IMG/VR virus record: IMGVR_UViG_3300008448_000373
Location: 1-32,227 of that record
Origin: a virus
Taxonomy: Duplodnaviria; Caudoviricetes
Length of the DNA stretch: 32,227 nucleotides
Direction: 5' to 3' (one strand)
Positions 9,623 through 32,022 of this stretch are shown piece after piece (position 1 is the first letter of the stretch; every line of letters begins with the position of its first letter). A program made the translations under genes and the position numbers. The notes beneath the pieces were generated by a model. The model worked only from the letters and a program-made list of their open reading frames with translations, was not told where the DNA came from and did no database searches.

Positions 9623-12600
9623 ATGCCGCAGTACAAAGTCGAGATTCCGGGTCAAGGCACATTTAATGTTGACTCCCCGGAAGAGCTAACCGATGCACAG
9701 GTCTATGCAGCGGTTCGACAACAACTGCGCTCTGAAGTTTCTGAAGCACCACAAGAAGTAGCTGCGCCAACCATTGGTGGGCAGACCAAAGAATTTTTTA
9801 AAGGGTTGCTTCCCGGCGGTATTGGCTTAGTTGAACAAGCTGGTATGGGTATATCAGCACTGCTGCCCGAAGAACAAGAAAAAGCTACACAACAATACAT
9901 TAAAGAAGCTGCGGCTACAGCCAAAGCTCCGTTTGCCGCTGCGCCGGGGTATGAGGACACAATAGGGCGTAAGTTTGGTGAAGCTACGGGTTCAATAGTT
10001 CCGTTTCTTGCCACTGGCCCGTTTGGTATGGCGGGGCGTGTAGCTGGTTACGGACTTGGTATTGGTGCTGGCGCTGGCACACAGGTAGAGAAATCTGCCG
10101 CTGAAGGCGCAACTGAAGAACAACAAACCGCCGCTACTGCGTTGGGTTCCGTGGTTGGTGCTTCAGAAATGTTTGCGCCTGCTCGCATCCTTAAACGTAT
10201 TGCAGAACCTCTAGCCGCAGGCGCTGCCGCGCTTGTAAAACGTGCGTTGATGGCGGGTGGAGAAGAAGCTGCACAAGAAGCCGCAGCGCAGGCAGCACAG
10301 AACCTTATCAGCAAAGGTATATACAAACCTGAACAAGAGATTATTGAGCAGGTTGGTGAGTCTGCCGCTTACGGCGGTGCTGTTGGTGCATTAGCACAAG
10401 GCTTGTTAGATTTGGCGCTGGGGCGCAGAGTTCGCGGCGCTCCTTCTGAACAACCCGAGGCAGGTGAAACTGCTGCCCCTCCTGAACCGGGCGCGCCTGT
10501 TGCTCCCACTACTCCTGAGGAGGAGGTGCCCGAGCCTACTTTACAGCAACCTGTTCCTGAGAAAGATATCAAAGAACCCGTGCTCCCCGGAGCCGCTGCA
10601 TCGTTTAAAGAACGCTTGGATCAGCGCAAACAGCTTGAGAAAGCCGTTGCCCCCTATGAAAAAGAACAGGCTCGTGTAGCCGCCTTGACCCCGTTTGACT
10701 ACCTGATGGAGCAGACAGGTGAGGTGCCCAAACCCGCAAAAGTCAAAGAAGGTGAAGGAGTTGTTACCGCCGATATGACCGGCCTGCCTTACGCCATGAA
10801 GTTTGCCAAGAAGCAGATTGAAGCCGCCAAGTACAACGAGATTGAGCCGGACGTTTCCAAATACATTGAGTATTTGATTACAAAGCCTGAATACGCCGAC
10901 ATTTTGGCCAAGCAAGTCAAACAACTGCCGGGGCTAAATGCCAAACAAAGCAAGTCCGTGTTGGCCGCTTTGCCATCAGCGTTGAAGTTACGAGCCGAAG
11001 CAGAAGCCAAGAAAACCGCAGAAACAGAGAAACCTGCCGAGACTCTTGATAAAGATTTAAGCCACCTTGAACCTTTGTTTAATAAGGCTTTTGAAGGTAA
11101 AGCACCCATCATTGAGGTCAACGAAAACCTCATGCCAACCCGCAACGCCAAGATAGTGCGGGAGAATGTCAATACTTTACTGCAACAAGCTGATGATGTA
11201 GAAGCAGCATACAGGGCTGCGCGGCGTGCTGGTAATAGGGCGGCAGCGGTCTCTGCTTTTGCGCAGAAGCAAATCATTACCAAGAAGCTCAACGCACTGA
11301 CTGAGGAAACTCCTGCCGGTGATTTGACTGCTGGAAAACAAAAACCTCCGGGAGAGATTGATACCCGCGCTTCTTACGCCAGAGAAGTTGTGCAGCTACG
11401 CCGCCAACAGCAGAAGGCTCTAGAGGACATTGAGGTCACGCTTAATACGCTCCGTGCTGGCGATGTGATGGGCAGAGAGATTGAACCCGTCCGTGACCCT
11501 GAAACGGGCCAGATCACCATGAAGCCGGTTGAGATTGGCAAAGGTGTAGCAGGTGCATCGGGCGCTGTGCTGGCACAACGTGCTGAGACTTTGCGTGGGG
11601 ACTACATCAACGCTTTGCTAAAGGAAGCGGCAACACATCGCCGTGCGCTGGGCAAAGCCCCCATTACCGTGGACGAAGCCACCAAAGCCGCCTCACGGGT
11701 GTATGACGTTGTAAGTGAGTGGATTGAACGCTCTAAAGCCAAGCCGTTGCCAAGGTTTGTTGAGAAGCCCGAGTTTGTAGAAAAGATTGTTCAGCCTGCC
11801 CAAAAACGTGCAGGCAAGATCATTAGAGGCGCTGTTACTGAACGGGCATACAGTGAAAAGCCTCCAGCCAAAGCTCCTGAAGGACAGGACTTTACTACCG
11901 GTAAATGGGAGAAGTTCCCCACAGGCAAGCCAAACCCACCTTTTGTTTGGGAATTTATAGACAGCCGCCCAGTAGAAGGCCGGTTCAACGAAATTGCAAG
12001 GCTGAGCGACAAGGAAGTCAAGCACTTCAAGGCTCAGATCGACAACGTAGTCAAGGACTTAGAAGAGATTCCGTCCGAAGTTTCACGTGAAACACCTCTG
12101 TTAAAGCAACAGTTTGCTGGTACTGAGGCGCAAAAGACAGCCGAAGCCAAGGGTGAGACAGCCACAACTGTGGGCGGAGAACTACGCCGTCGTACAGAAT
12201 TTGTGCGCAACTTGATGGCTAAGCCGCCTCTCAAGCCGTTGACAGAAGAAACCCGCAAAACTTTAAACCTGAAGCTGCTTGATCGTGCCGTTGACATTAT
12301 GGACAGCGGCAAAGCCTCACGCGGTTTGTTGGACGCTGTTGAACCTATTGTTACAAACTTGGCTGAAGGCCGTGAGGTTCTTCCCCAAGATATACGGGCG
12401 CTTGATGATGCCATAAAGCTGTATGAACGTACAGCCCAAGAGGGTGAGATTGCTGGTGAAGGTGCGGCTGGTCAAGGTCAGTTGTTCCCTGAGACTCGCA
12501 AAGACATTGGTTATATCCGCGCCACTCCTGCCAACTTTGCCAAGTCACCACAGATCAAACCTGTATGGGAAGCGTTAGAGCAGTCCCGCAAGCTCAAGGC

Positions 12601-15600
12601 AGAGCTAGACCAGAAGACCAAAATAGATAAAGCCAAGGCCGTTGTAGCCATCAATGAAATTGAAAGCCTTACAACATTGGTTGACAACATTAAGAAGGAC
12701 ACCAAGTTCTTTTGGGCAGACACTACCAAGTGGTCAAACCAAGCGTTGGCTAAAGCGTTTGTTCAGTTTCCCGATATTGGTAAGACAGCCGAAGAGCAGG
12801 CGCTTGTTGACATTTACCTTAAAAGTCCCAAGAGTCTTTCTGCCGCAGATGCGGCTAAAGTTAAAGAACTTGTGTCTGCGTTCAACACAAAAGCGTTGCC
12901 ACAGTACAAAGAAAAATTAAACCAAGCAGTGCAAATGCTTGCCCAAGGTGAACGTCTTAACGACGTTGACAACCGGTTGCTTGGTTTTATGCAAGACACT
13001 AACAAAAGTGTTCGTGAAGCAGCAGAAGCTAAGAAACAAGCGCTTGCCCCTTTGCAGGAAGCACTGGATAGGATTAAGGTCGCGCTCAAAGCGTCGCCTG
13101 TTTTGACAGAAGCTCAAAAAGATGCACTTGGTTTAGAAGGCAAGATCAGCGACCAGCGTGCTAAGTACGGTCAGTCTGTTGAAGCAGCTATCAAAAAGAC
13201 CAACGACCAAATGGTTGCAGCAAGAGACGCCATCCTTAACCCACAAATTGAGCCAGTGCTGCGCTCACTCAAAGCCGCAGGTACGCGTCTTGAAAAAGTG
13301 TTGGATGAAATTGTTAACGCAGAAAAAACGTTTGATGCAATGCTGGAGACCAAGGGCGGCGAAGAACGCCTGCTGAGTTCTCCGTATCAAGTTGAGAGCT
13401 TGCGCAAGAACAAAGAAACTGCTGAAAAACTTATTGACCAGATTCAAGAACAGTCAAAGATATACGAAGACTTGCTCACGCAAAAGAATGAAGACTTCAC
13501 ACGTAGTTCAATAGCCGTGCAGGCTATGCTGGACAAGAACGTCAAGTACGAGCGTGAGTATCTGGAAATACTTGAGGGGCAGCTTGCGTTTGTGCGTGGT
13601 GAAAACATTGATGCAATGCAAGAAAAGCCGGGCGAGCGCCGGATGTTTGAGAAAGTTGTGTCTACGCAGAAGTATCCGTTTGCTGCTCGCCGCGCTGAAG
13701 AAGCAATCAAAGCTCAACGTGCCGCGTTGGAGTCCGCAAAGAAACGTGCAGACGAGTTCAAGAAGGACACAGCGGATACTAAAGTCAAGCTTGAAAAGAC
13801 TCAGAAACAAGCCGCAACAGATATTGCAGATAAATTGCCCGGCGTTCAGATGTCGCAAGGCGAAGTTAGCAAACTTAAAACTGCGGCTGAGAAAGAAGCT
13901 GAGGCAAAAAACAAGGCCGAGCTTGACCTTACCGCTGAGACCATTGATGCTGGCAGACGCGCTCAGATAAAGCAGACACAGCTTGATGAATTAAACACTG
14001 AGCTTGAGAATCTATACCTTGACTTTGCTGGGCGTGCTGGCCCAACAGACCCTGCTATGTTGCAGGAGTTTGCGCGTAACAAGAAGAAGTCACCCGCTAC
14101 ACGTGCGTATGCACAAGCCAAGCTTGACCTGTATAACAAGATTGAAATCCTTGAAGCGCAAGAAGATTCAATCAAAACAGGTAAGCCTTTTAGAAAGCCA
14201 CGCACAGCCACTACGCCGAGCACTGCCGCGTTGGCGGGAGCCAAAGAGTTTCGTTCAGGTTCTGATGCTCAGCGTGAGCAACGTCAGAAACGCGTTGATG
14301 CGGCAATTGACAAAGAGTACGCACGTTACGAACGGCTTGAAACAAAAGCCACAATGCAGGCAGACAAAGAAGCACGCAAGTATGCTGAGGATTTGTTTGA
14401 GAGCGACGACTACATTGAGCCGTCTAGACAGAGCTACGAGTTCTCACGCGGTGTCCCATCGACAGGCTTGACCAAGGCGGAGCTTGAAGCTGAGCTTACT
14501 GCTGGTATGGGGGAGCCTGTTACTGGTCGCGGTAAAGAAGCGCAGGTTAATCGTGCACTGAGTGTGTATGAGAATCTTGACGAATACTTAAGCCAGTTTA
14601 AAGATGCCACACGTCAAAAACTAGAAGGCCAAATTCCATCAGACGCTAAAGGTTTTGTGCAAGACGGCAAGGCGGTACTGTTTGCCAACAACATAGCCAA
14701 AGGCGAAGGTCTGGGCGTATTGCTCCACGAAGTCGGCGTGCACATAGGTTTCCGCAATTTCTTTAACCAAGCTCAATACAACGCTTTGGTTAAGACAGTT
14801 AAATCATGGGCTGCGCGTGAAGACGGTTCTATGGAAGCGCGTGTTGGTAAAGCCGCAATGGATAGAGTTAAAGCTGCTGAGACACCTGCAAACCAAATTG
14901 ATGATGAGCTTTTAGCGTATGCCGTTGAAGAGGCAATGAAAGCTGGGGTCGAGCCAGAAGGCGTGAAGAAAGGTTCTGCTGTGCAGAACTGGTTGCGCAT
15001 GGTGGTCGATGCGTTTAGAAAAGCGCTTGAGAAGTTTGGCATCAACGCCAAGAACTTGACTGCTGGTGACTTGGTTAACTTTGCTTACGGTGCGGCACAG
15101 CTTGAACTCAAAGGAACTTGGCACGGCACTGGCGTAGAGTTCAAAGAGTTTGACCATTCATATATGAGTACCGGTGAAGGCCATCAAGCATTTGGCTATG
15201 GCACATATCGTGCACAACAAAAAGGTATTGGTCAAAATTATCAACGTATTGCGGCAGAAAACCAAACTGAAAAATGGATGGAGCGCCCAGATGTAAAAGA
15301 ATGGTATGAAACACAAGCACCAAAATTTACAGGTACGTTGCCTGAAGGAACGCCTGATTGGATTTTAGACTACGCTTTGTTTGAAGCCGCCACAGTGAGT
15401 GGTTCTTACATAACTTCCAACCCTTACAAAGCTTTTAAAGATACTTTTAAAAACAACATAAAAGAATTAACGGATTTGCGTAAAGACGGTAGGCCTGAAG
15501 CAGCTTTTAAAGATGCTACTGATGCTGAGTTTAAAAACAAACTTAAAGAACTTGAAAATTATGCAGAAACTGCGGATGAGCATTTGGTTGCTGTTTATGA

Positions 15601-18600
15601 TCAACCTGTGTACAAAGGCAAACCGTATTACGAAATCTACAACACAAACCCAACAGCCGGTAATGTTATACATATGTTTGAACGATTACGGGATAAAAAT
15701 AACGGAGTGGCACCAACTTGGAAAGAGGCTATTGAAAAAGCAAAAGTTGACGCTGGCATTATGTCAGACAGTTTTAAAGATACCCCAGAAGACCGTGTTT
15801 TTTACGATCGTTACAAACAAGTTTATGACACTATAGACAGCCTTGACGTAAATGATTTTAAATACAACCCGCCGTCTGGCCCCCCCGTGCCAGCGCCAGT
15901 TGGTTATTTGATGCGCACGTTGCATACGCGTCCAGAAAACGAATACGTTCATTGGGACGACCTTGCAGACAAACAACCACCGGTTATCAAAGCCGTATTT
16001 AAGCGCATCTATGATTCATTGACCTCACCACAAAAAGGATTTTTTGATCGTGCTATAGGCACGTCCCCGCCTGATCGCCAAAATGGGCAGGACTTGTACC
16101 AAGCGTTGAGCGCTGTATTTGAAAAGTCCGGCACACCAAGCAAATTGTCTGACATGATGGCGTCTGAAATGTTGTACGCCGAAGGTGTTGCAGGCATTAA
16201 GTTTTTTGACAATCCCTCAAGACAAACAAAAAAAGGTACGTTTAATTACGTTGACTTTGGCGACAAAGAAGAGGGCGCTCAAATACTTGGTGTTGACCTT
16301 GAGCCTGTTGGGAAGACCAAAGAGATGCTGTTCTCCCGCGCTGTTGCCCCGGGGTTTGAGGATGCGCTGAACACAGCCAACGACATCATTGCTAAGCCTA
16401 AAACAGTCCGTCAACGGGTTGAGGCTAACCTTGGTCTGGCGTTCCGTACACAGGTACTGGACAGACTGGCTCCTCTGGAACAAATTGCCAAGACTATGCT
16501 TGACCCCCTCAAGGGTACGCAGATGATGTACTACCTGCGCATGTCAGACCAGCGCATGTCCTTTGTTCAGCAAGCTGTTGGTCGTGGCGTTCCACAACTT
16601 GTTGGTTACAAGCGCAAAGACGGACAGACTGAGTACCTAATCGAAAGCAAAGAAGGCGTTAACTTGTCGTCTGTGGTCGACACCTTGAAGGACGCACCCG
16701 GCATGAATGCTGAAGCAGCCAATAAGTTGTTCACGCTGTACTTGGCTGGCAAACGTGCTGATCGTGTTGGCTACAACAAGCTGAACTTCTCCAAGACAGA
16801 AGCTGAGATACGCAGTGCCGTTAAACAAATTGAAAGTAACAAAGAACTGCTAGGCGTGTTTGAAAAAGCACGCACCCAATACAACAACTACAACCGCAAC
16901 TTGATGAAGTTCATGGAGTCTACGGGCGCTATGTCTAAGGAAGTTGCTGAACAGCTTGCCAGCACCAACGACTACATTCCCTATTACCGTGAGCGCAACG
17001 GCAACGCCGAACTGGTCATTGGCGGTGAAGGCACGTTCAAGATGGGTAGTCTTAAAGATCAACCACAACTGAAAGAGTTGATTGGTGGTGAAGAAAAGAT
17101 TATGGACTTTCTGACAAGCTCAGTGGAGAACACGTCCATCATTATGGATATTGGCTTGCGCAACAAGGCTACTACCAATGCTATGTTTGAGTTGGTTGAT
17201 CTGGGTATTGCCCGATTTGTTAAGCCTGACTCAACTGGCCCCAACATTGTGCGCTTTAAAGATCGCGGTGAAGAGAAGGCGGTTGAGATTAACACACGCA
17301 ATACCGATTTTCCCGCCGACTTACTGGTCAAAGGGCTTGAAGGTATTCCTGTAAACAACTCTGCACTTATCAGAGCTATGGGCGTCCCATCTACTTTCTT
17401 GCGTAAAGCTATTACCCTAAACCCGCTGTACTCTTTGCGTCAGATATTCCGTGACTCTGTTGCGGCTCCTCTGCTGTCCGGCGCAGACATGTTGCCCATC
17501 ATTGGCGCTCTCAAACAAATTGGTGCGTCGGCAACAAAAGAAAAGCTGGAGGCTCGCGGCATTGTTGGTGGGCAAGTATTTACTGGCACAAACGAAGACC
17601 TTACAACCATCCTCAGAGAATTCCAGTCAGGCAAGATGGGGCTGTCTCAGTTGATGGCACGCGCTGAAGGTATTGCAATGGAAGCTGACGCGTCTACTCG
17701 CCGTGCTCAGTACGACTCATACATCAAGCAAGGGCTGTCCGAGATGGAAGCTACGCTGATGTCGCTGGAGTCAATGAACTTCAACCGCAAAGGCTTGTCG
17801 CCCAGCGTGCGCATGGCGTCTACGCTGATACCTTTCTTCAACGCCCAGTTGCAAGGCTTGGACGTTTTGTATCGTGCCATGACAGGCAAGATGCCGTTCA
17901 ACGAGCGCTTAGACATTCAAGGGAAACTGTACCGCCGTGGCATGTTGTTGGCTGGCACAGCCGTGGCTTACGCCCTGCTCATGCAGGACGACGAGGCCTA
18001 CAAGAACGCTAACCCTGATGAGAAGTATGGCAACTTCTTTGTGCGCATCCCCGGATTAAAAGAACCTATGCGTATCCCAATCCCGTTTGAGATCGGTTAT
18101 ATCTTTAAAGCTCTGCCCGAAGCTATGGTCAACATTATGGCAAACAAGCAAGGCGATGAGGAAGCATACAAAGCATTCAAACAGATTGTGCTTCAGACCA
18201 TACCGGGCGGCACCTCTTTGTTTATACCTGCCGCTGTGAAACCTGCGATTGAAAACGTGGCCAACTACTCGTTCTTTACTGGGCGCTCACTTGAGACCAA
18301 GCGTGAACAGAATCTTGAGGCGGCTTACCGCTACCGAGACAACACTTCTGAGATTGCCAAGTTCATTGGTCAGGCTGGCAATGTGTCACCTATCAAAATA
18401 GAAAACCTGATACGCGGCTACACCGGCTCTATGGGTATGGCGCTGGCTCAGAGCTTTAACATAGCGATGCCAACACCCAAGGGCACACCAGAGCAAGCTA
18501 CCAAGCGTTTGTCCGAAACTGCTGTGATTGGCCCTCTGTTCCAACCCAACGATGCTGGCGGTATTGTTGGTGCTGTCTATGACCGCATGACTGAAGTAAA

Positions 18601-18886
18601 GGAAATTAAGAACACGTTTGATGAGTTGGTGAAAGATGGTCGTAAGGCTGAGGCCAAAGAATATCTCCAAAAGAACCTTAACGACTACGCCGCGTCAGCA
18701 GTGGGCGGCAACGCTCAACAGCAGATGACTTTGATTACTCAAGCAATGAATGCAGTCAAAGCGTCCAATCTTTCTCCAGATCAGAAGCGGGCAAAGCTTG
18801 ACGAGTTGCAGGCTTTGCGTATAAAGATCGCCACGAACATCCGGGAAGTCTTCGATAAAACCACACTCCCAGCATCCCGTCCTTAA
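9623..18886 (+). CDS. Giant (3087 aa) polyvalent internal virion protein: N-terminal Gly/Ala hydrophobic helices, coiled coil, zincin HExxxH, ART-like domain, LPD38-like C-terminus
   Basis: Uninterrupted ORF with AGAGG RBS. LLHEVGVH...DELLAYAVE at ~14720-14930; WHGTG...TGEGHQAFGYGTY...GIKFFD...NYVDF at ~15119-16264; C-terminal RIPIPFEIG and KPAIENVANYSFFTGR resemble LPD38. Confidence 0.8.
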   Translation: MPQYKVEIPGQGTFNVDSPEELTDAQVYAAVRQQLRSEVSEAPQEVAAPTIGGQTKEFFKGLLPGGIGLVEQAGMGISALLPEEQEKATQQYIKEAAATAKAPFAAAPGYEDTIGRKFGEATGSIVPFLATGPFGMAGRVAGYGLGIGAGAGTQVEKSAAEGATEEQQTAATALGSVVGASEMFAPARILKRIAEPLAAGAAALVKRALMAGGEEAAQEAAAQAAQNLISKGIYKPEQEIIEQVGESAAYGGAVGALAQGLLDLALGRRVRGAPSEQPEAGETAAPPEPGAPVAPTTPEEEVPEPTLQQPVPEKDIKEPVLPGAAASFKERLDQRKQLEKAVAPYEKEQARVAALTPFDYLMEQTGEVPKPAKVKEGEGVVTADMTGLPYAMKFAKKQIEAAKYNEIEPDVSKYIEYLITKPEYADILAKQVKQLPGLNAKQSKSVLAALPSALKLRAEAEAKKTAETEKPAETLDKDLSHLEPLFNKAFEGKAPIIEVNENLMPTRNAKIVRENVNTLLQQADDVEAAYRAARRAGNRAAAVSAFAQKQIITKKLNALTEETPAGDLTAGKQKPPGEIDTRASYAREVVQLRRQQQKALEDIEVTLNTLRAGDVMGREIEPVRDPETGQITMKPVEIGKGVAGASGAVLAQRAETLRGDYINALLKEAATHRRALGKAPITVDEATKAASRVYDVVSEWIERSKAKPLPRFVEKPEFVEKIVQPAQKRAGKIIRGAVTERAYSEKPPAKAPEGQDFTTGKWEKFPTGKPNPPFVWEFIDSRPVEGRFNEIARLSDKEVKHFKAQIDNVVKDLEEIPSEVSRETPLLKQQFAGTEAQKTAEAKGETATTVGGELRRRTEFVRNLMAKPPLKPLTEETRKTLNLKLLDRAVDIMDSGKASRGLLDAVEPIVTNLAEGREVLPQDIRALDDAIKLYERTAQEGEIAGEGAAGQGQLFPETRKDIGYIRATPANFAKSPQIKPVWEALEQSRKLKAELDQKTKIDKAKAVVAINEIESLTTLVDNIKKDTKFFWADTTKWSNQALAKAFVQFPDIGKTAEEQALVDIYLKSPKSLSAADAAKVKELVSAFNTKALPQYKEKLNQAVQMLAQGERLNDVDNRLLGFMQDTNKSVREAAEAKKQALAPLQEALDRIKVALKASPVLTEAQKDALGLEGKISDQRAKYGQSVEAAIKKTNDQMVAARDAILNPQIEPVLRSLKAAGTRLEKVLDEIVNAEKTFDAMLETKGGEERLLSSPYQVESLRKNKETAEKLIDQIQEQSKIYEDLLTQKNEDFTRSSIAVQAMLDKNVKYEREYLEILEGQLAFVRGENIDAMQEKPGERRMFEKVVSTQKYPFAARRAEEAIKAQRAALESAKKRADEFKKDTADTKVKLEKTQKQAATDIADKLPGVQMSQGEVSKLKTAAEKEAEAKNKAELDLTAETIDAGRRAQIKQTQLDELNTELENLYLDFAGRAGPTDPAMLQEFARNKKKSPATRAYAQAKLDLYNKIEILEAQEDSIKTGKPFRKPRTATTPSTAALAGAKEFRSGSDAQREQRQKRVDAAIDKEYARYERLETKATMQADKEARKYAEDLFESDDYIEPSRQSYEFSRGVPSTGLTKAELEAELTAGMGEPVTGRGKEAQVNRALSVYENLDEYLSQFKDATRQKLEGQIPSDAKGFVQDGKAVLFANNIAKGEGLGVLLHEVGVHIGFRNFFNQAQYNALVKTVKSWAAREDGSMEARVGKAAMDRVKAAETPANQIDDELLAYAVEEAMKAGVEPEGVKKGSAVQNWLRMVVDAFRKALEKFGINAKNLTAGDLVNFAYGAAQLELKGTWHGTGVEFKEFDHSYMSTGEGHQAFGYGTYRAQQKGIGQNYQRIAAENQTEKWMERPDVKEWYETQAPKFTGTLPEGTPDWILDYALFEAATVSGSYITSNPYKAFKDTFKNNIKELTDLRKDGRPEAAFKDATDAEFKNKLKELENYAETADEHLVAVYDQPVYKGKPYYEIYNTNPTAGNVIHMFERLRDKNNGVAPTWKEAIEKAKVDAGIMSDSFKDTPEDRVFYDRYKQVYDTIDSLDVNDFKYNPPSGPPVPAPVGYLMRTLHTRPENEYVHWDDLADKQPPVIKAVFKRIYDSLTSPQKGFFDRAIGTSPPDRQNGQDLYQALSAVFEKSGTPSKLSDMMASEMLYAEGVAGIKFFDNPSRQTKKGTFNYVDFGDKEEGAQILGVDLEPVGKTKEMLFSRAVAPGFEDALNTANDIIAKPKTVRQRVEANLGLAFRTQVLDRLAPLEQIAKTMLDPLKGTQMMYYLRMSDQRMSFVQQAVGRGVPQLVGYKRKDGQTEYLIESKEGVNLSSVVDTLKDAPGMNAEAANKLFTLYLAGKRADRVGYNKLNFSKTEAEIRSAVKQIESNKELLGVFEKARTQYNNYNRNLMKFMESTGAMSKEVAEQLASTNDYIPYYRERNGNAELVIGGEGTFKMGSLKDQPQLKELIGGEEKIMDFLTSSVENTSIIMDIGLRNKATTNAMFELVDLGIARFVKPDSTGPNIVRFKDRGEEKAVEINTRNTDFPADLLVKGLEGIPVNNSALIRAMGVPSTFLRKAITLNPLYSLRQIFRDSVAAPLLSGADMLPIIGALKQIGASATKEKLEARGIVGGQVFTGTNEDLTTILREFQSGKMGLSQLMARAEGIAMEADASTRRAQYDSYIKQGLSEMEATLMSLESMNFNRKGLSPSVRMASTLIPFFNAQLQGLDVLYRAMTGKMPFNERLDIQGKLYRRGMLLAGTAVAYALLMQDDEAYKNANPDEKYGNFFVRIPGLKEPMRIPIPFEIGYIFKALPEAMVNIMANKQGDEEAYKAFKQIVLQTIPGGTSLFIPAAVKPAIENVANYSFFTGRSLETKREQNLEAAYRYRDNTSEIAKFIGQAGNVSPIKIENLIRGYTGSMGMALAQSFNIAMPTPKGTPEQATKRLSETAVIGPLFQPNDAGGIVGAVYDRMTEVKEIKNTFDELVKDGRKAEAKEYLQKNLNDYAASAVGGNAQQQMTLITQAMNAVKASNLSPDQKRAKLDELQALRIKIATNIREVFDKTTLPASRP

Positions 18887-27676: not shown

Positions 27677-29644
27677 TTATGATTTTGCTAACCCATATCT
27701 ACGGTGCGCACCACCGTCAGCGGCCAAAGGTATCCCCGGCATGTAACTCGGCTCCATAGTCATCTGCGCCAAGACCCAAGTCTTCGCGTCAACAACTTCT
27801 GCGTCAGGCACCAACACGATCTGTTCATCGTGCACAGTACCAACCACAGGGTATCTCTTTGTCACCCTCAACATTCCATCGGTCATGACAATGCGTGCCA
27901 ATGCCTGCGTAACATTGTTTGTTATTTTTCCTGCATACAGCTTTGTTGCACGCTCTCCGTACACCCACTGCGTTCTGCCTTTACCGTCTGGCTCAGGGCG
28001 CAGATTTGGGTACAGGAGTTTCATTCCGTTTGGTAATTCTATCTCGCCTTCACGGAATGTCAAACACTTGTGTGTGTACTCTTTGCCCAAATACAGCGAC
28101 TTGTGTATAAGCTCACTGAACAACGCCCACAGCGACACGATAGGCCAAGCAGTCCGGCGGTAGGAGTCAATGATTGCCTTGGCGGCAAGGGCATGAGTAA
28201 GTAGTTCTTTGTCAGAACAAGTGTGGGGGATGTCGAATAGCTTGTCGTCGTTGCCGTCCCACTCCACAAACTTCTGCGCGTACTCAGAGCTAACCCCTAA
28301 CGCTTTCGCGAAGTCTTTTGAGTACCGTACAGGCGGCGCACCAAGGAATCCAGTAAGGAGTTGGGACGCAAACGATGCCCAGCCAAGGCCATACCCACAT
28401 CCAAGCAATGCGCTCTTCGCCGATTGCCGTAAGTCTGGATGGCTTTCCTTAGTGAGTCCTGCGATGTTAAACATCTGAGCGCCGAACGCGGCGTAAGGGT
28501 CACCGCCAGCGCGGAAGATGTCGAGCATATCTTGGTAATCTGAAAGCCACGCGAGTACTCGCGGTTCAATTTGCGAGAGGTCACCGACGACAAGCTGATA
28601 GCCTTCGGGAGCCATAATTGCTTTGCGTAGGAAACTGCCTCGCTTGAGGTTTTGCATGTTGATTGCTGAACCTTTTGCCGCCGTCCAGCGACCCGAGAGA
28701 GCGCCGTAATACGATAGCGGAACAGGTAGTTTGCCACGCTGGGAGATATCAAGGAACCGTTGCGCACGCGTGCGTTCGGTGGTGGATTTAACTTTAAGGC
28801 GTGCTTCACAAAGGAGGGCAACGTCTTCACGTTCACCGTTGAGCAACGCTTGGAACAAGGCATCATTCTTTGCGAGAGCGAGCGTTTCTTTGCCGGTAGT
28901 TTTACTGACTTTAGTCGGGGCCACAACCCCGAGGCTTTGAAGTATGTTTGCAAACTTCGGGTTCGACGCAAGCTCAACCTCTTGTATGCCGAGTCTTTGT
29001 AGTAGTCCTTCACGCGCTTCTCCTTCTTCTGTTAGTGCCTTGATGAGCATCTTGTGGTCAAGCTCAAGCACGGGTCGTGTGTACATCTTGAGCGTCATGT
29101 CTATCAGACGCAGTTCGGATTTTGGGTAGCCCTCTCCCAATCTTTTGAATATTTCCTCACACAAAAACACATCATGCGCACAGTATGCAGCGAGTTCCCG
29201 CTCAAGGTCTTCGGAAAGTTCAGTGAGTCCATCAGTCGAGTGAACGGCTTGTCCCTTCTCCGGCAAAGAGAAGTCCTTCGCCAATTTAGCCAAGGAGTTT
29301 CCAACCTCCACACCGCGTAAAGCTCGCGCCATTGATAAAGTGTCGAAGATGAATGCGGGTTGATAACCGTAGACCCACTCAATAATGGATATATCGAACT
29401 GTGCGTTATGCGCAAGCACAGCGGTTCGTCCCCAGTCGATTCCCGAAAAGAATTCAGGTAGTCCATCTCCTCCAACCCACTCAATTGGGCTGTCAGTTCC
29501 GAACTCATGTATACATGCTCCAAACGATTTAAATCTCTTATCACGTATGTACTCCTCGGTTGTCATCTTGGATAGCGTGTAGTCACGCTTGTCCCACCGA
29601 GTTTCAAAGTCGATGGTCAGTATCCTGTCAAATGGTTTAGTCAA
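27677..29644 (-). CDS. polA: Phage DNA polymerase, family A (3'-5' exonuclease plus polymerase, no 5'-3' exonuclease)
   Basis: ExoI IDFET, ExoII HNAQFD, ExoIII YCAHD; SGRW, NMQNL; motif A DLSQIEPR; motif B RQSAKSALLGCGYG; motif C VHDE. TTG start overlaps the upstream TGA. Confidence 0.95.
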   Translation of the reverse strand: MTKPFDRILTIDFETRWDKRDYTLSKMTTEEYIRDKRFKSFGACIHEFGTDSPIEWVGGDGLPEFFSGIDWGRTAVLAHNAQFDISIIEWVYGYQPAFIFDTLSMARALRGVEVGNSLAKLAKDFSLPEKGQAVHSTDGLTELSEDLERELAAYCAHDVFLCEEIFKRLGEGYPKSELRLIDMTLKMYTRPVLELDHKMLIKALTEEGEAREGLLQRLGIQEVELASNPKFANILQSLGVVAPTKVSKTTGKETLALAKNDALFQALLNGEREDVALLCEARLKVKSTTERTRAQRFLDISQRGKLPVPLSYYGALSGRWTAAKGSAINMQNLKRGSFLRKAIMAPEGYQLVVGDLSQIEPRVLAWLSDYQDMLDIFRAGGDPYAAFGAQMFNIAGLTKESHPDLRQSAKSALLGCGYGLGWASFASQLLTGFLGAPPVRYSKDFAKALGVSSEYAQKFVEWDGNDDKLFDIPHTCSDKELLTHALAAKAIIDSYRRTAWPIVSLWALFSELIHKSLYLGKEYTHKCLTFREGEIELPNGMKLLYPNLRPEPDGKGRTQWVYGERATKLYAGKITNNVTQALARIVMTDGMLRVTKRYPVVGTVHDEQIVLVPDAEVVDAKTWVLAQMTMEPSYMPGIPLAADGGAHRRYGLAKS

Positions 29645-29907
29645 TTAAATGCCTCCTTTGGTGGTGCGCCAACCATATTTAGATAGCCGAAAAAATCATT
29701 TGCCTCGAGCAAAAGCTCCATAGCTTCCATGTCATCTGCGTTTATGGTGATGAGTCCTGCCATCTTCCCCTTCGACTTGATGAGCAGTACCGCTTGGTCT
29801 GGGTCATCGCCGTAGCACTTGACCAGTTGCAGTACAACTATCTTGAAGTGCTCGCGCTCTTCCTCAGTCATTGTGATGAGTCGTTGTTCGATTACGTCTT
29901 GTTCCAT
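29641..29907 (-). CDS. Hypothetical protein
   Basis: 88 aa, GAGGAG RBS, overlaps both neighbours. Confidence 0.7.
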   Translation of the reverse strand: MEQDVIEQRLITMTEEEREHFKIVVLQLVKCYGDDPDQAVLLIKSKGKMAGLITINADDMEAMELLLEANDFFGYLNMVGAPPKEAFN

Positions 29908-30185
29908 AGTAGCTCCTCTAGTTCGTTGATGTTGTCTTCGTTGATAACCATTGAAATCCCCCCTGACCTGCGTATGCGTTGCAGGTTGTCCTCTTGTAAA
30001 GTTGTTGGCTTGTTCTTTCCTGCCTTTGCTTCTATACCAACAAACCTGCCGTTGACGCAGACCAAGAAGTCAGGCACGCCTGAGTTTCCATAACCTGTGC
30101 CAATAGGCATAGCGTAGTACGCACCTGACTCCTCAAGCAGTTTGCGTATTTGCTTCTTTACTTTTACCTCAGGTGTTGATGCCAT
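29892..30185 (-). CDS. VRR-NUC domain nuclease / Holliday junction resolvase-like
   Basis: TPEVKVK...GVPDFLVC...FVGIEAK...KPTTLQ. Confidence 0.88.
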   Translation of the reverse strand: MASTPEVKVKKQIRKLLEESGAYYAMPIGTGYGNSGVPDFLVCVNGRFVGIEAKAGKNKPTTLQEDNLQRIRRSGGISMVINEDNINELEELLWNKT

Positions 30186-30202
30186 ACAGTTTCCTTTGAA
30201 TT

Positions 30203-30335
30203 GGTGAGGGGGTCAAGTAGATTACACGCCCCCTCGGTCGTGTTGTGGAGTGGGTGCGGAGCTTACTCTCTCAAAGGGCTAACACCCCGCATCCAACAAA
30301 ACGTGTTCGCATCTACTAGGCTTGCACGCGTTGCG
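30203..30335 (-). ncRNA. Candidate structured RNA (three hairpins plus loop-loop pairing); family not recognised
   Basis: Stems 30206-30212/30229-30235 (perfect 7 bp), 30241-30245/30294-30298 plus 30252-30261/30285-30294, and 30301-30305/30325-30329. Loop sequences 30216-30222 and 30311-30317 are exact complements. Confidence 0.55.
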
Positions 30336-30347
30336 TCAATATAATCG

Positions 30348-30500
30348 TTAGCCCTTTTGTCTTTTGTCCCTGCTTTCTTGTAGAAATTTTCTTAGCCACT
30401 TACTGGCACCTAGTTTCATGTACTCTTCATACTCACTTTGCGTTACGCGGATACCAATGGTCTTGCCGCTTTTGGTTAACTCAGTTTTTGGTCGCGGCAT
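30348..30500 (-). CDS. 50-aa ribbon-helix-helix-like DNA-binding protein (not in ORF track)
   Basis: MPRPKTELTKSGKTIGIRVTQSEYEEYMKLGASKWLRKFLQESRDKRQKG: alternating strand TIGIRV then two helices; AGGAG RBS. Confidence 0.65.
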   Translation of the reverse strand: MPRPKTELTKSGKTIGIRVTQSEYEEYMKLGASKWLRKFLQESRDKRQKG

Positions 30501-31677: not shown

Positions 31678-31913
31678 TTCTTCATCTCCTCAATATCTTT
31701 TACCAAAATATCAAACCATTCATGTGTGGCTTTGCCTCTACCCATACTCTCCAACGGCATGACGGCGGGGCGCAGTTCTTTGATGCGTTGCAACACTTCG
31801 TTAATCACAAAATCACGATATGGGTTGGTTGCTACCGCCGCCCTCACCGCCTCCTTGCGCTGTCCTGCTTGTCGTTCAATCTCGTTGAACGCTTCGTCTT
31901 CTTCATTCATCAT
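31674..31913 (-). CDS. Hypothetical protein
   Basis: MMNEEDEAFNEIERQ...; GGAG upstream; overlaps neighbours. Start could be 31922, 31913 or 31910. Confidence 0.6.
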   Translation of the reverse strand: MMNEEDEAFNEIERQAGQRKEAVRAAVATNPYRDFVINEVLQRIKELRPAVMPLESMGRGKATHEWFDILVKDIEEMKK

Positions 31914-32022
31914 CAACTCCATTCTGTAATATGTACAAAACCCAAATCAGCATAGCGCCCATGAATACAAAAACAAAAGCGCCGAACAGCATCAGACTTA
32001 CAGTCACCGCTACGTCCCACAT
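31903..32022 (-). CDS. 39-aa single-TM membrane protein (not in ORF track)
   Basis: MWDVAVTVSLMLFGAFVFVFMGAMLIWVLYILQNGVDDE; GGAGG RBS inside the upstream gene end. Confidence 0.6.
   Translation of the reverse strand: MWDVAVTVSLMLFGAFVFVFMGAMLIWVLYILQNGVDDE

Follow-up and report, generated by a model that had tools for sequence, protein, structure and literature searches.

The window, by which we mean the whole 32,227-nt stretch of DNA that was analysed, is a virus record that is 52% complete. Its replication arm comprises a Hjc/VRR-NUC-like nuclease, a family A polymerase (polA), a PD-(D/E)XK nuclease, an SNF2 helicase and a DUF927 protein. Between the start of the Hjc/VRR-NUC-like gene and a 50-aa ORF lies a gap of 162 nt, as given in a preliminary description of this DNA. 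The nuclease had been named VRR-NUC in that description; its Pfam score falls below the cut-off (E = 0.034), but it matches the PHROG 93 endonuclease family (E = 1.5e-16) and is 35% identical to an annotated VRR-NUC. For the 50-aa ORF, a proposed RHH-like identity drew no profile match, and the nearest named Atlas clusters (CcdA, NikA and RHH_1, at 0.85-0.88) are a lead only. Cultured relatives are distant, with polA identities of 25-32%, and the RNA runs containing the stretch have lake, freshwater, sediment or marine as their labels.

The conserved sequence encoded in the gap is predicted to form six helices, arranged as two H-type pseudoknots joined by a 7-bp kissing helix (Table 1). In pseudoknot 1, the 5' end pairs with the P3 loop to give P1, which is combined with P3, and hairpin P2 is inserted in the first loop. 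Pseudoknot 2 consists of P4 and P5, and the P2 loop pairs with its last loop, forming the kiss (pseudoknot 3). Across the family, the length from P1 to P5 is 134-158 nt, with a median of 145 nt.

Table 1. Positions of the predicted element, its parts and its neighbours in the window
Feature	Positions	Strand	Remark
Upstream 50-aa ORF	30348..30500	-	RHH-like by weak lead only; this neighbour in 3/124 variants
Complete structured RNA, from start of P1 through ACCA tail	30202..30357	-	about 155 nt, predicted ends
P1 5' strand	30347..30357	-	overlaps stop codon of upstream ORF; 11/11 complementary
P2 5' strand	30325..30337	-	contains P1 of the preliminary description
P2b, 2-bp helix and 9-nt loop	30309..30321	-	loop holds kissing 5' strand, 30317-30311
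P2 3' strand	30295..30305	-	
P3 5' strand	30285..30294	-	upper P2 of the preliminary description
P1 3' strand in P3 loop	30273..30283	-	pseudoknot 1
P3 3' strand	30252..30261	-	
Predicted seed ACUCCA in single strand J3/4	30246..30251	-	complement of RBS tag of early core genes
P4 5' strand	30239..30243	-	
P5 5' strand	30229..30235	-	P3 of the preliminary description
P4 3' strand	30224..30228	-	pseudoknot 2, stacked on P5
Kissing 3' strand	30216..30222	-	pseudoknot 3; preceded by invariant unpaired A at 30223
P5 3' strand	30206..30212	-	
ACCA tail	30202..30205	-	possible processing signal
Hjc/VRR-NUC-like nuclease	29892..30185	-	
Candidate target	31916..31921	-	6-nt seed complement before ATG at 31910; start codon uncertain

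Scanning viral and metagenome contigs with sequence patterns returned at least 195 unique full-length matches, with 7 cut ones set aside and totals estimated at about 300 and about 270 stretches. Among the 195 unique matches listed, 169 had all six bases (6/6) of the kissing partner upstream, a partner that the pattern of the first scan did not fix, and in 151 a P4 of 5 bp was formed together with a kiss of 6 bp. The addition by eye of 20 near misses gave 171 members and 87 representatives; 75 of the latter make up alignment A1, from which 12 short or near-duplicate rows were left out. Two-sided changes occur in A1 at four of seven kiss pairs and three of five P4 pairs, and RNAalifold finds the kiss and P4 in this alignment unaided. 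As the rows of A1 had been selected for pairing, a separate scan fixed only the letters around the kiss: P4 and P5 were both complete (5/5) in 82 of its 102 unique matches, whereas swapped P4 strands paired in 11%, and the 87 matches that were kept held 34 sequence types of P4 and 14 of P5. A joint set of 124 representative variants (85% identity; median identity 50%) was used for the counts below. All seven kiss pairs are present in 107 of these variants, through 17 different sequence pairs. The kiss, P4 and P5 covary, also in the set selected without reference to P4 and P5. At the level of single base pairs, tree-based counting found too few supported branches, and a loose pattern scan gave mostly chance matches. 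The element is present as a single copy per record in 50 + 50 records (one record being counted twice) and in the window, and in 59 of 80 nuclease-linked loci it lies within 2.5 kb.

The kissing pseudoknot of the preliminary description is thus kept far beyond chance, and its 7-bp complement (30317-30311 with 30222-30216) is exact. The helices then called P1, upper P2 and P3 are likewise found in the sequence, and no terminator-like site occurs in the gap, in agreement with the lack of a U-tract noted before. The extent, on the other hand, had been drawn too short. An 11/11 inverted repeat ties 30357-30347 to the loop of the GC-rich hairpin, so that the element is larger than first noted and starts 10 nt outside the range given, at 30357; this pairing takes the place of a supposed weak apical stem. 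The former P3 (P5 here) stands, but its loop is not free, as half of it forms a further 5-bp helix with 30243-30239. A lower P2 helix (UGUUG/CAACA) is kept in only 7 of the 124 variants, against 7.4% in a swapped control. Two helices, and the seed discussed below that covaries with early-gene Shine-Dalgarno (SD) sequences, had been missed. A loop-E (sarcin-ricin-like) motif had been proposed to compete with the kiss; both of its halves, the AGUA and GAA strands, are present in only 6 of 124 variants, and such competition was ruled out because the motif is not conserved.

Support for the remaining helices comes from the joint set. For P1, the median pairing score is 21 for own strands and 12 for swapped ones, and 75 of 124 variants exceed the swapped 95th percentile. 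A P2 with at least six pairs encloses the kiss loop in 121 of 124 variants, and the P2b pair is C-G in 61, G-C in 8 and U-G in 5 of the 75 aligned rows. P4 has 5 bp; P5 has 6-7 bp in 113 of 124 variants, with a terminal G-C pair in 98. The folding energy of the gap is no better than that of shuffled controls (z = -0.72), which is expected since three of the helices are pseudoknots, whereas the P3 region has z < -2 in 101 of 124 variants. Invariant bases are few: three A-U/U-A kiss pairs (partly fixed by the search patterns), the A before the kissing 3' strand and a G-C pair at the P4/P5 joint. Additional helices between J1/2 and the tail or between J3/4 and the tail gave no pairing signal, and J1/2 with J3/4 gave p = 0.048. 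Several short variants (L102, L109, L130, L141, L166, L193, L360 and L380) are without the P1 pseudoknot, some having a local hairpin instead, and L193 is also without most of P3; in five others (L479, L485, L507, L508 and L539) additional bases separate P4 from the invariant AAU. Likenesses of the element to a T-loop, a Cas12a repeat, SAM-V or an IRES, which we take to be impressions only, were set aside.

In 32 of the 124 variants a 1-nt loop crosses a stem of 6-7 bp, which is A-form geometry and counts against the earlier suggestion that the structure is folded single-stranded DNA at a replication origin. A pairing partner that appears to be an mRNA SD sequence and the absence of the element from a complete relative (see below) speak against it as well. 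Loop types do not separate RNA from DNA (6 GNRA versus 4 GNA), and in the window itself the sense and antisense strands fold equally well. The element does adjoin replication genes, and comparative analysis cannot surely separate single-stranded DNA from RNA (PMC5737381), but our results lend an origin structure no support and make it extremely improbable.

From its sequence, the element is a new family of predicted structured RNA with a kissing pseudoknot, which supports one of the proposals of the preliminary description. The Rfam 15 covariance models gave no match at gathering score in the window and nine loci; at E <= 10 the only match was to DapZ on the opposite strand, with 16 of 56 bits, and 20 further loci gave two chance snoRNA matches only. 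Full-text searches of the literature found no published description, and three of the six alignment files of PMC10690425 gave no match, although a fragment may still be listed there or in the supplement of PMC5737381. With the window and locus L031 as blastn queries, no match was returned from 50,697 phage records. One pattern run against GTDB genomes gave seven matches, none with the full fold; as this pattern catches 26 of 102 members of the wider family, bacterial copies are possible. A fold model (R1) found the element in none of four cultured relatives (Rhizobium phage RHph_TM3_14A, Pseudomonas phages KPP25 and Rollin and Aeromonas phage phiA008), Acinetobacter and Xanthomonas phages being outside the scan, and hence no cultured carrier is known.

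The setting of the element is informative about the transcript to which it may belong. The gene directly downstream is the nuclease in 61 of the 124 variants, an exonuclease in 4, polA in 3 and some other gene in 53 (3 being too short), and the genes upstream also vary, a DUF3310-like gene being the commonest (32/124). In 79 of 115 variants, no more than 8 nt separate P1 from the upstream stop codon. A promoter-like site occurs between the element and the next gene in 21 of 124 variants, compared with 2 of 366 controls, and a terminator-like hairpin follows it in 4 of 124, compared with 1 of 289, whereas the 94 nt before P2 hold no promoter-like site in any of the 124. With a stop adjoining P1, no promoter-like site before it and promoter- or terminator-like sites after it, the element would belong to the upstream transcript. 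Indeed, it looks like the tail of an early transcript with both ends paired. The promoter-bearing loci (L099, L144, L463, L483, L497 and 16 more) have near-consensus sigma-70 sites and are AT-richer (44% versus 52% GC), with at least five changes on the tree. A recoding signal was looked for and no fixed frame was found, the gap modulo 3 being distributed 28/26/25 and the frame being open across the element in 4 of 79 cases.

These observations bear on readings in which the element acts in cis. A processive antiterminator for the replication operon, similar to HK022 put or Bacillus EAR, would fit an intercistronic, single-copy element that lies ahead of VRR-NUC in 81 of 124 variants and ahead of polA in 54 (within the loci sampled), and RNA-only antiterminators exist (PMC8632103). 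It is nevertheless rather unlikely, since the element is kilobases away from the nearest promoter-like sites, is followed by a promoter-like site in 21/124 and by terminator-like hairpins in 4/124 variants, and would leave the seed-SD covariation unexplained. A translational operator or enhancer for the next gene, like the T4 gene 32 pseudoknot (PMC535899), agrees with a next start codon that is mostly 16-30 nt after P5. The downstream gene varies, however, a promoter-like site intervenes in 21 variants, and J3/4 does not covary with its own downstream SD, own pairing being equal to swapped pairing (p = 0.2-0.4); such an operator is therefore very unlikely, and for the same reasons little favours the cis-acting switch for the replication genes that had been offered previously. 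A riboswitch or cis translational switch was considered as well and rejected, as the element does not regularly lead a functionally consistent kind of gene with an RBS-covering platform or a terminator.

The 3' end of the element raises the question of processing. ACC follows P5 directly in 64 of 124 variants, in contrast to 22 of 744 later spacer positions, and is extended to ACCA in 11. RNase T, which halts at CC, leaves 4.5S RNA with ACCC (PMC3439924), and RNase P cuts tRNA-like pseudoknots if RCC is present (PMC12710915); together with this behaviour, the ACC tail is a hint of processing rather than proof. It is conceivable that the element serves chiefly as a tRNA-like signal for processing or stability, in which P4 and P5 form a pseudoknotted acceptor arm of 11-12 bp ending in G-C/ACC and an RNase P cut in loop 1 splits the early from the replication mRNA. 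The length of P5, its terminal G-C pair and the enrichment of ACC all agree with such an arm, as does the cited cleavage of pseudoknots by RNase P. Against this, ACC is missing in 60 of 124 variants, the nuclease tree shows 18 changes in it, ARAGORN called no tRNA or tmRNA in 14 loci, and the seed is given no account. As the main function we consider it quite unlikely; a tRNA-like processing signal may, though, coexist with an antisense role. Among promoter-bearing members ACC is present in 2 of 21, compared with 62 of 103 others, an association that falls short of significance when the tree is taken into account, with 2 supported pairs. Metatranscriptome contigs from eight RNA runs have low depth and continue into the flanking genes; no discrete RNA was seen in them, the uncovered parts being uninformative.

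An indication of function comes from J3/4, the pyrimidine-rich single strand between P3 and P4, which was compared with the upstream early start regions of the same genome under a permutation control; all start codons in these comparisons are predicted. In eight near-complete discovery genomes the own energy was -5.91 kcal/mol and the permuted energy -5.40 kcal/mol (p = 0.002), whereas downstream genes gave p = 0.49. A replication sample of 52 new records (51 with the element and 50 with at least eight early starts) yielded 36 that were independent at 74% identity, and with the same definitions these gave p = 0.0003, against p = 0.12 for downstream SDs and p = 0.68 for early coding sequence. 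Other single strands gave weaker signals in the energy test (J1/2, p = 0.02; tail, p = 0.06), suggesting that there is some composition effect. An exact 6-nt complement was found in own early start regions at a rate of 12.4%, compared with 7.0% in permuted and 8.2% in GC-stratified controls (p = 0.0004). The signal peaks at J3/4 along the RNA and, along the target, only over the SD (-18 to -3); a z of 2.9 was reached in one further RNA window (P4a+38), where the rate was 2.9%.

A gene-family analysis of 34 families in 42 genomes, which included 7 discovery genomes and preceded thinning, places the signal mainly in a five-gene ATPase/vWA early core module. For an AAA-like ATPase gene (n = 27) and for genes of 145 aa (n = 9) and 319 aa (n = 20), the observed signal was reached in 0 of 4000 permutations each, and all three pass Bonferroni correction; a DUF2201 vWA gene (p = 0.006), the SNF2 helicase (p = 0.007, yet a downstream gene) and a DUF3150-like gene (p = 0.015) fall below it. 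Among 28 independent genomes, 15 have a core-gene match of at least 6 nt (permuted 25%) and 10 a match of at least 7 nt (permuted 9.6%), whereas 13 have no match of 6 nt or more and only generic ones of 4-5 nt. There are 22 different seeds of at least 6 nt, the matches using positions -10 to -3 before P4, and the seed register is fixed at -8 to -3 from P4. Single cases (L715, L736, L681, L708 and L709) reach 8-10 nt with different sequences. In 12 of 47 records with at least 9 kb upstream, the core genes gave no hit. In L753, the RNA core of which equals that of the window, four of five core genes have a 5- to 6-nt seed complement. The early arm of this genome (G137), 3-8 kb upstream of the RNA, has four core genes that share one extended RBS tag, and other clades have private tags. 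When nearest-neighbour pairs with different seeds were compared, the own combination beat the cross combination in 13 versus 5 of 20 pairs by energy (sign test, p = 0.096; Wilcoxon, p = 0.0096) and in 13 versus 4 by match length (p = 0.049), whereas the closest pairs showed no effect, nor did the control. The J3/4 seed thus covaries with the early-gene SDs of the same genome, with moderate strength in the paired test.

One contrast is available in which the element is missing: the complete 63.8-kb record G006 (L025) has a nuclease that is 77% identical and is without the element, and it is also without the ATPase/vWA/DUF3150-like module. The ATPase/vWA module is likewise absent from record G032, which is grouped with the variants that have additional bases after P4.

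We put at about one in two the probability that the element is excised from the tail of the early operon as a stable antisense RNA and represses the translation of early genes. Fold covariation, a single copy, a position at the end of the early arm and seed-SD covariation are the comparative basis of this reading, and from them we infer the RNA nature of the element, its excision, its pairing in trans and repression. The RNA would accumulate from the tail of the early operon and be excised, its ends paired by P1 and P5 and its ACC tail resembling those of host-trimmed stable RNAs. Its two pseudoknots would hold a seed of 6-9 nt exposed between two helices and shield it from nucleases, and the seed would pair in trans with the core genes of its own operon at their ribosome-binding sites, masking these. 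Early translation would then be turned down as the replication genes come on, as a delayed negative feedback. It is also conceivable that the seed pairing is real while its effect is to activate or stabilise early mRNAs, or that it takes place in cis between distant parts of a single transcript. Covariation tells neither the sign nor the mode of action, and the targets are found on the same strand, upstream at distances of 3-9 kb; the SD itself is covered by the match, however, and several targets for a single copy favour a free RNA, which makes this alternative highly doubtful.

One argument against a repressing antisense RNA is its scaffold, as three pseudoknots are not required for simple antisense pairing. 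Since the scaffold exceeds antisense needs, a cleaving guide RNA, antitermination and a tRNA-like processing signal keep some weight. In the first of these, the seed would be a guide and the RNA, as a ribozyme or together with a nuclease, would cut early mRNAs at the SD, as an RNA counterpart of T4 RegB, a nuclease that cuts early SDs (PMC3014915); the three-pseudoknot core would be catalytic or nuclease-recruiting and the variable J3/4 a programmable guide to the phage's own early ribosome-binding sites. The same seed-SD covariation, the fixed register of the seed, and three pseudoknots with a small invariant core at the kiss/P4/P5 junction would suit such a guide. The element is unlike any Rfam ribozyme, though, with few invariant unpaired bases and no constant partner gene, and we consider a cleaving guide unlikely.

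The antisense reading has partial precedents. The C4 antisense RNA of P1 and P7 and the CI RNA of P4 are phage RNAs processed from a longer transcript that combine a conserved scaffold with variable single strands, and the element may be likened to them; C4 and CI are RNase P substrates, and loop b' of C4 partly occludes ribosome-binding sites (PMC5320573, PMC5499578). The element shares with them a single strand complementary to phage ribosome-binding sites (with moderate strength in the paired test), but has neither their three-stem a'/b' fold nor an Rfam C4 match, and its processing is predicted only. As these sources describe it, C4 is a three-stem RNA of about 77 nt that serves temperate immunity, whereas the element has about 150 nt, three pseudoknots, one seed and several predicted early targets. 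The Cuckoo/CcsR RNAs of Alphaproteobacteria likewise present an anti-SD-like single strand on a variable helical scaffold; they are described as bacterial-genome RNAs of two to four plain hairpins that have a single constant loop motif (PMC4615179), whereas the element has one variable inter-helix strand with 22 seed types. The proposed role resembles that of RegB in shutting off early genes through an SD motif, but in RegB a protein is the nuclease and its motif is fixed (PMC3014915), and the element would, as an RNA, read a genome-specific tag by pairing. The tRNA-like structures of TYMV and TMV share with it a 3' H-type pseudoknot followed by an RCC-type tail (PMC12710915); the element, in contrast, is internal to a DNA-phage operon, has ACC in half of its variants and has no identified anticodon arm. 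Finally, the T4 gene 32 operator pseudoknot (PMC535899) and HK022 put/EAR (PMC8632103) are structured RNAs upstream of replication genes or long operons, as the element is predicted to be. They act in cis on a fixed downstream unit, whereas the fold of the element persists in variants where a promoter or terminator-like site comes before the next gene. In function the element would thus be like C4/CI, Cuckoo and, in outcome, RegB, while lying outside each by fold, and would represent a new form of phage antisense control.

A compact, uncatalogued predicted RNA fold with unusually rich covariation and three pseudoknots in about 150 nt is ready for structure work. The named candidate targets and the natural variants of seed and target bear on how early genes may be shut off in phages without a known RegB-type factor, and if the seed guides cleavage, the element could become a new programmable RNA tool.

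Three further observations were made in passing. In the cultured phage RHph_TM3_14A (MN988472.1, L569:4453-4853), a 400-nt gap from a metallopeptidase gene to the pre-polA genes holds several long hairpins by eye; it has no Rfam or R1 match and is possibly a different RNA in a similar slot. Within polA of the window, out-of-frame ORFs lie at 29104-29544 and 28297-29013 on the minus strand, with relatives in 15 and 16 of 42 genomes. The structural arm of the window contains an ORF of 3087 aa at 9623-18886 on the plus strand.
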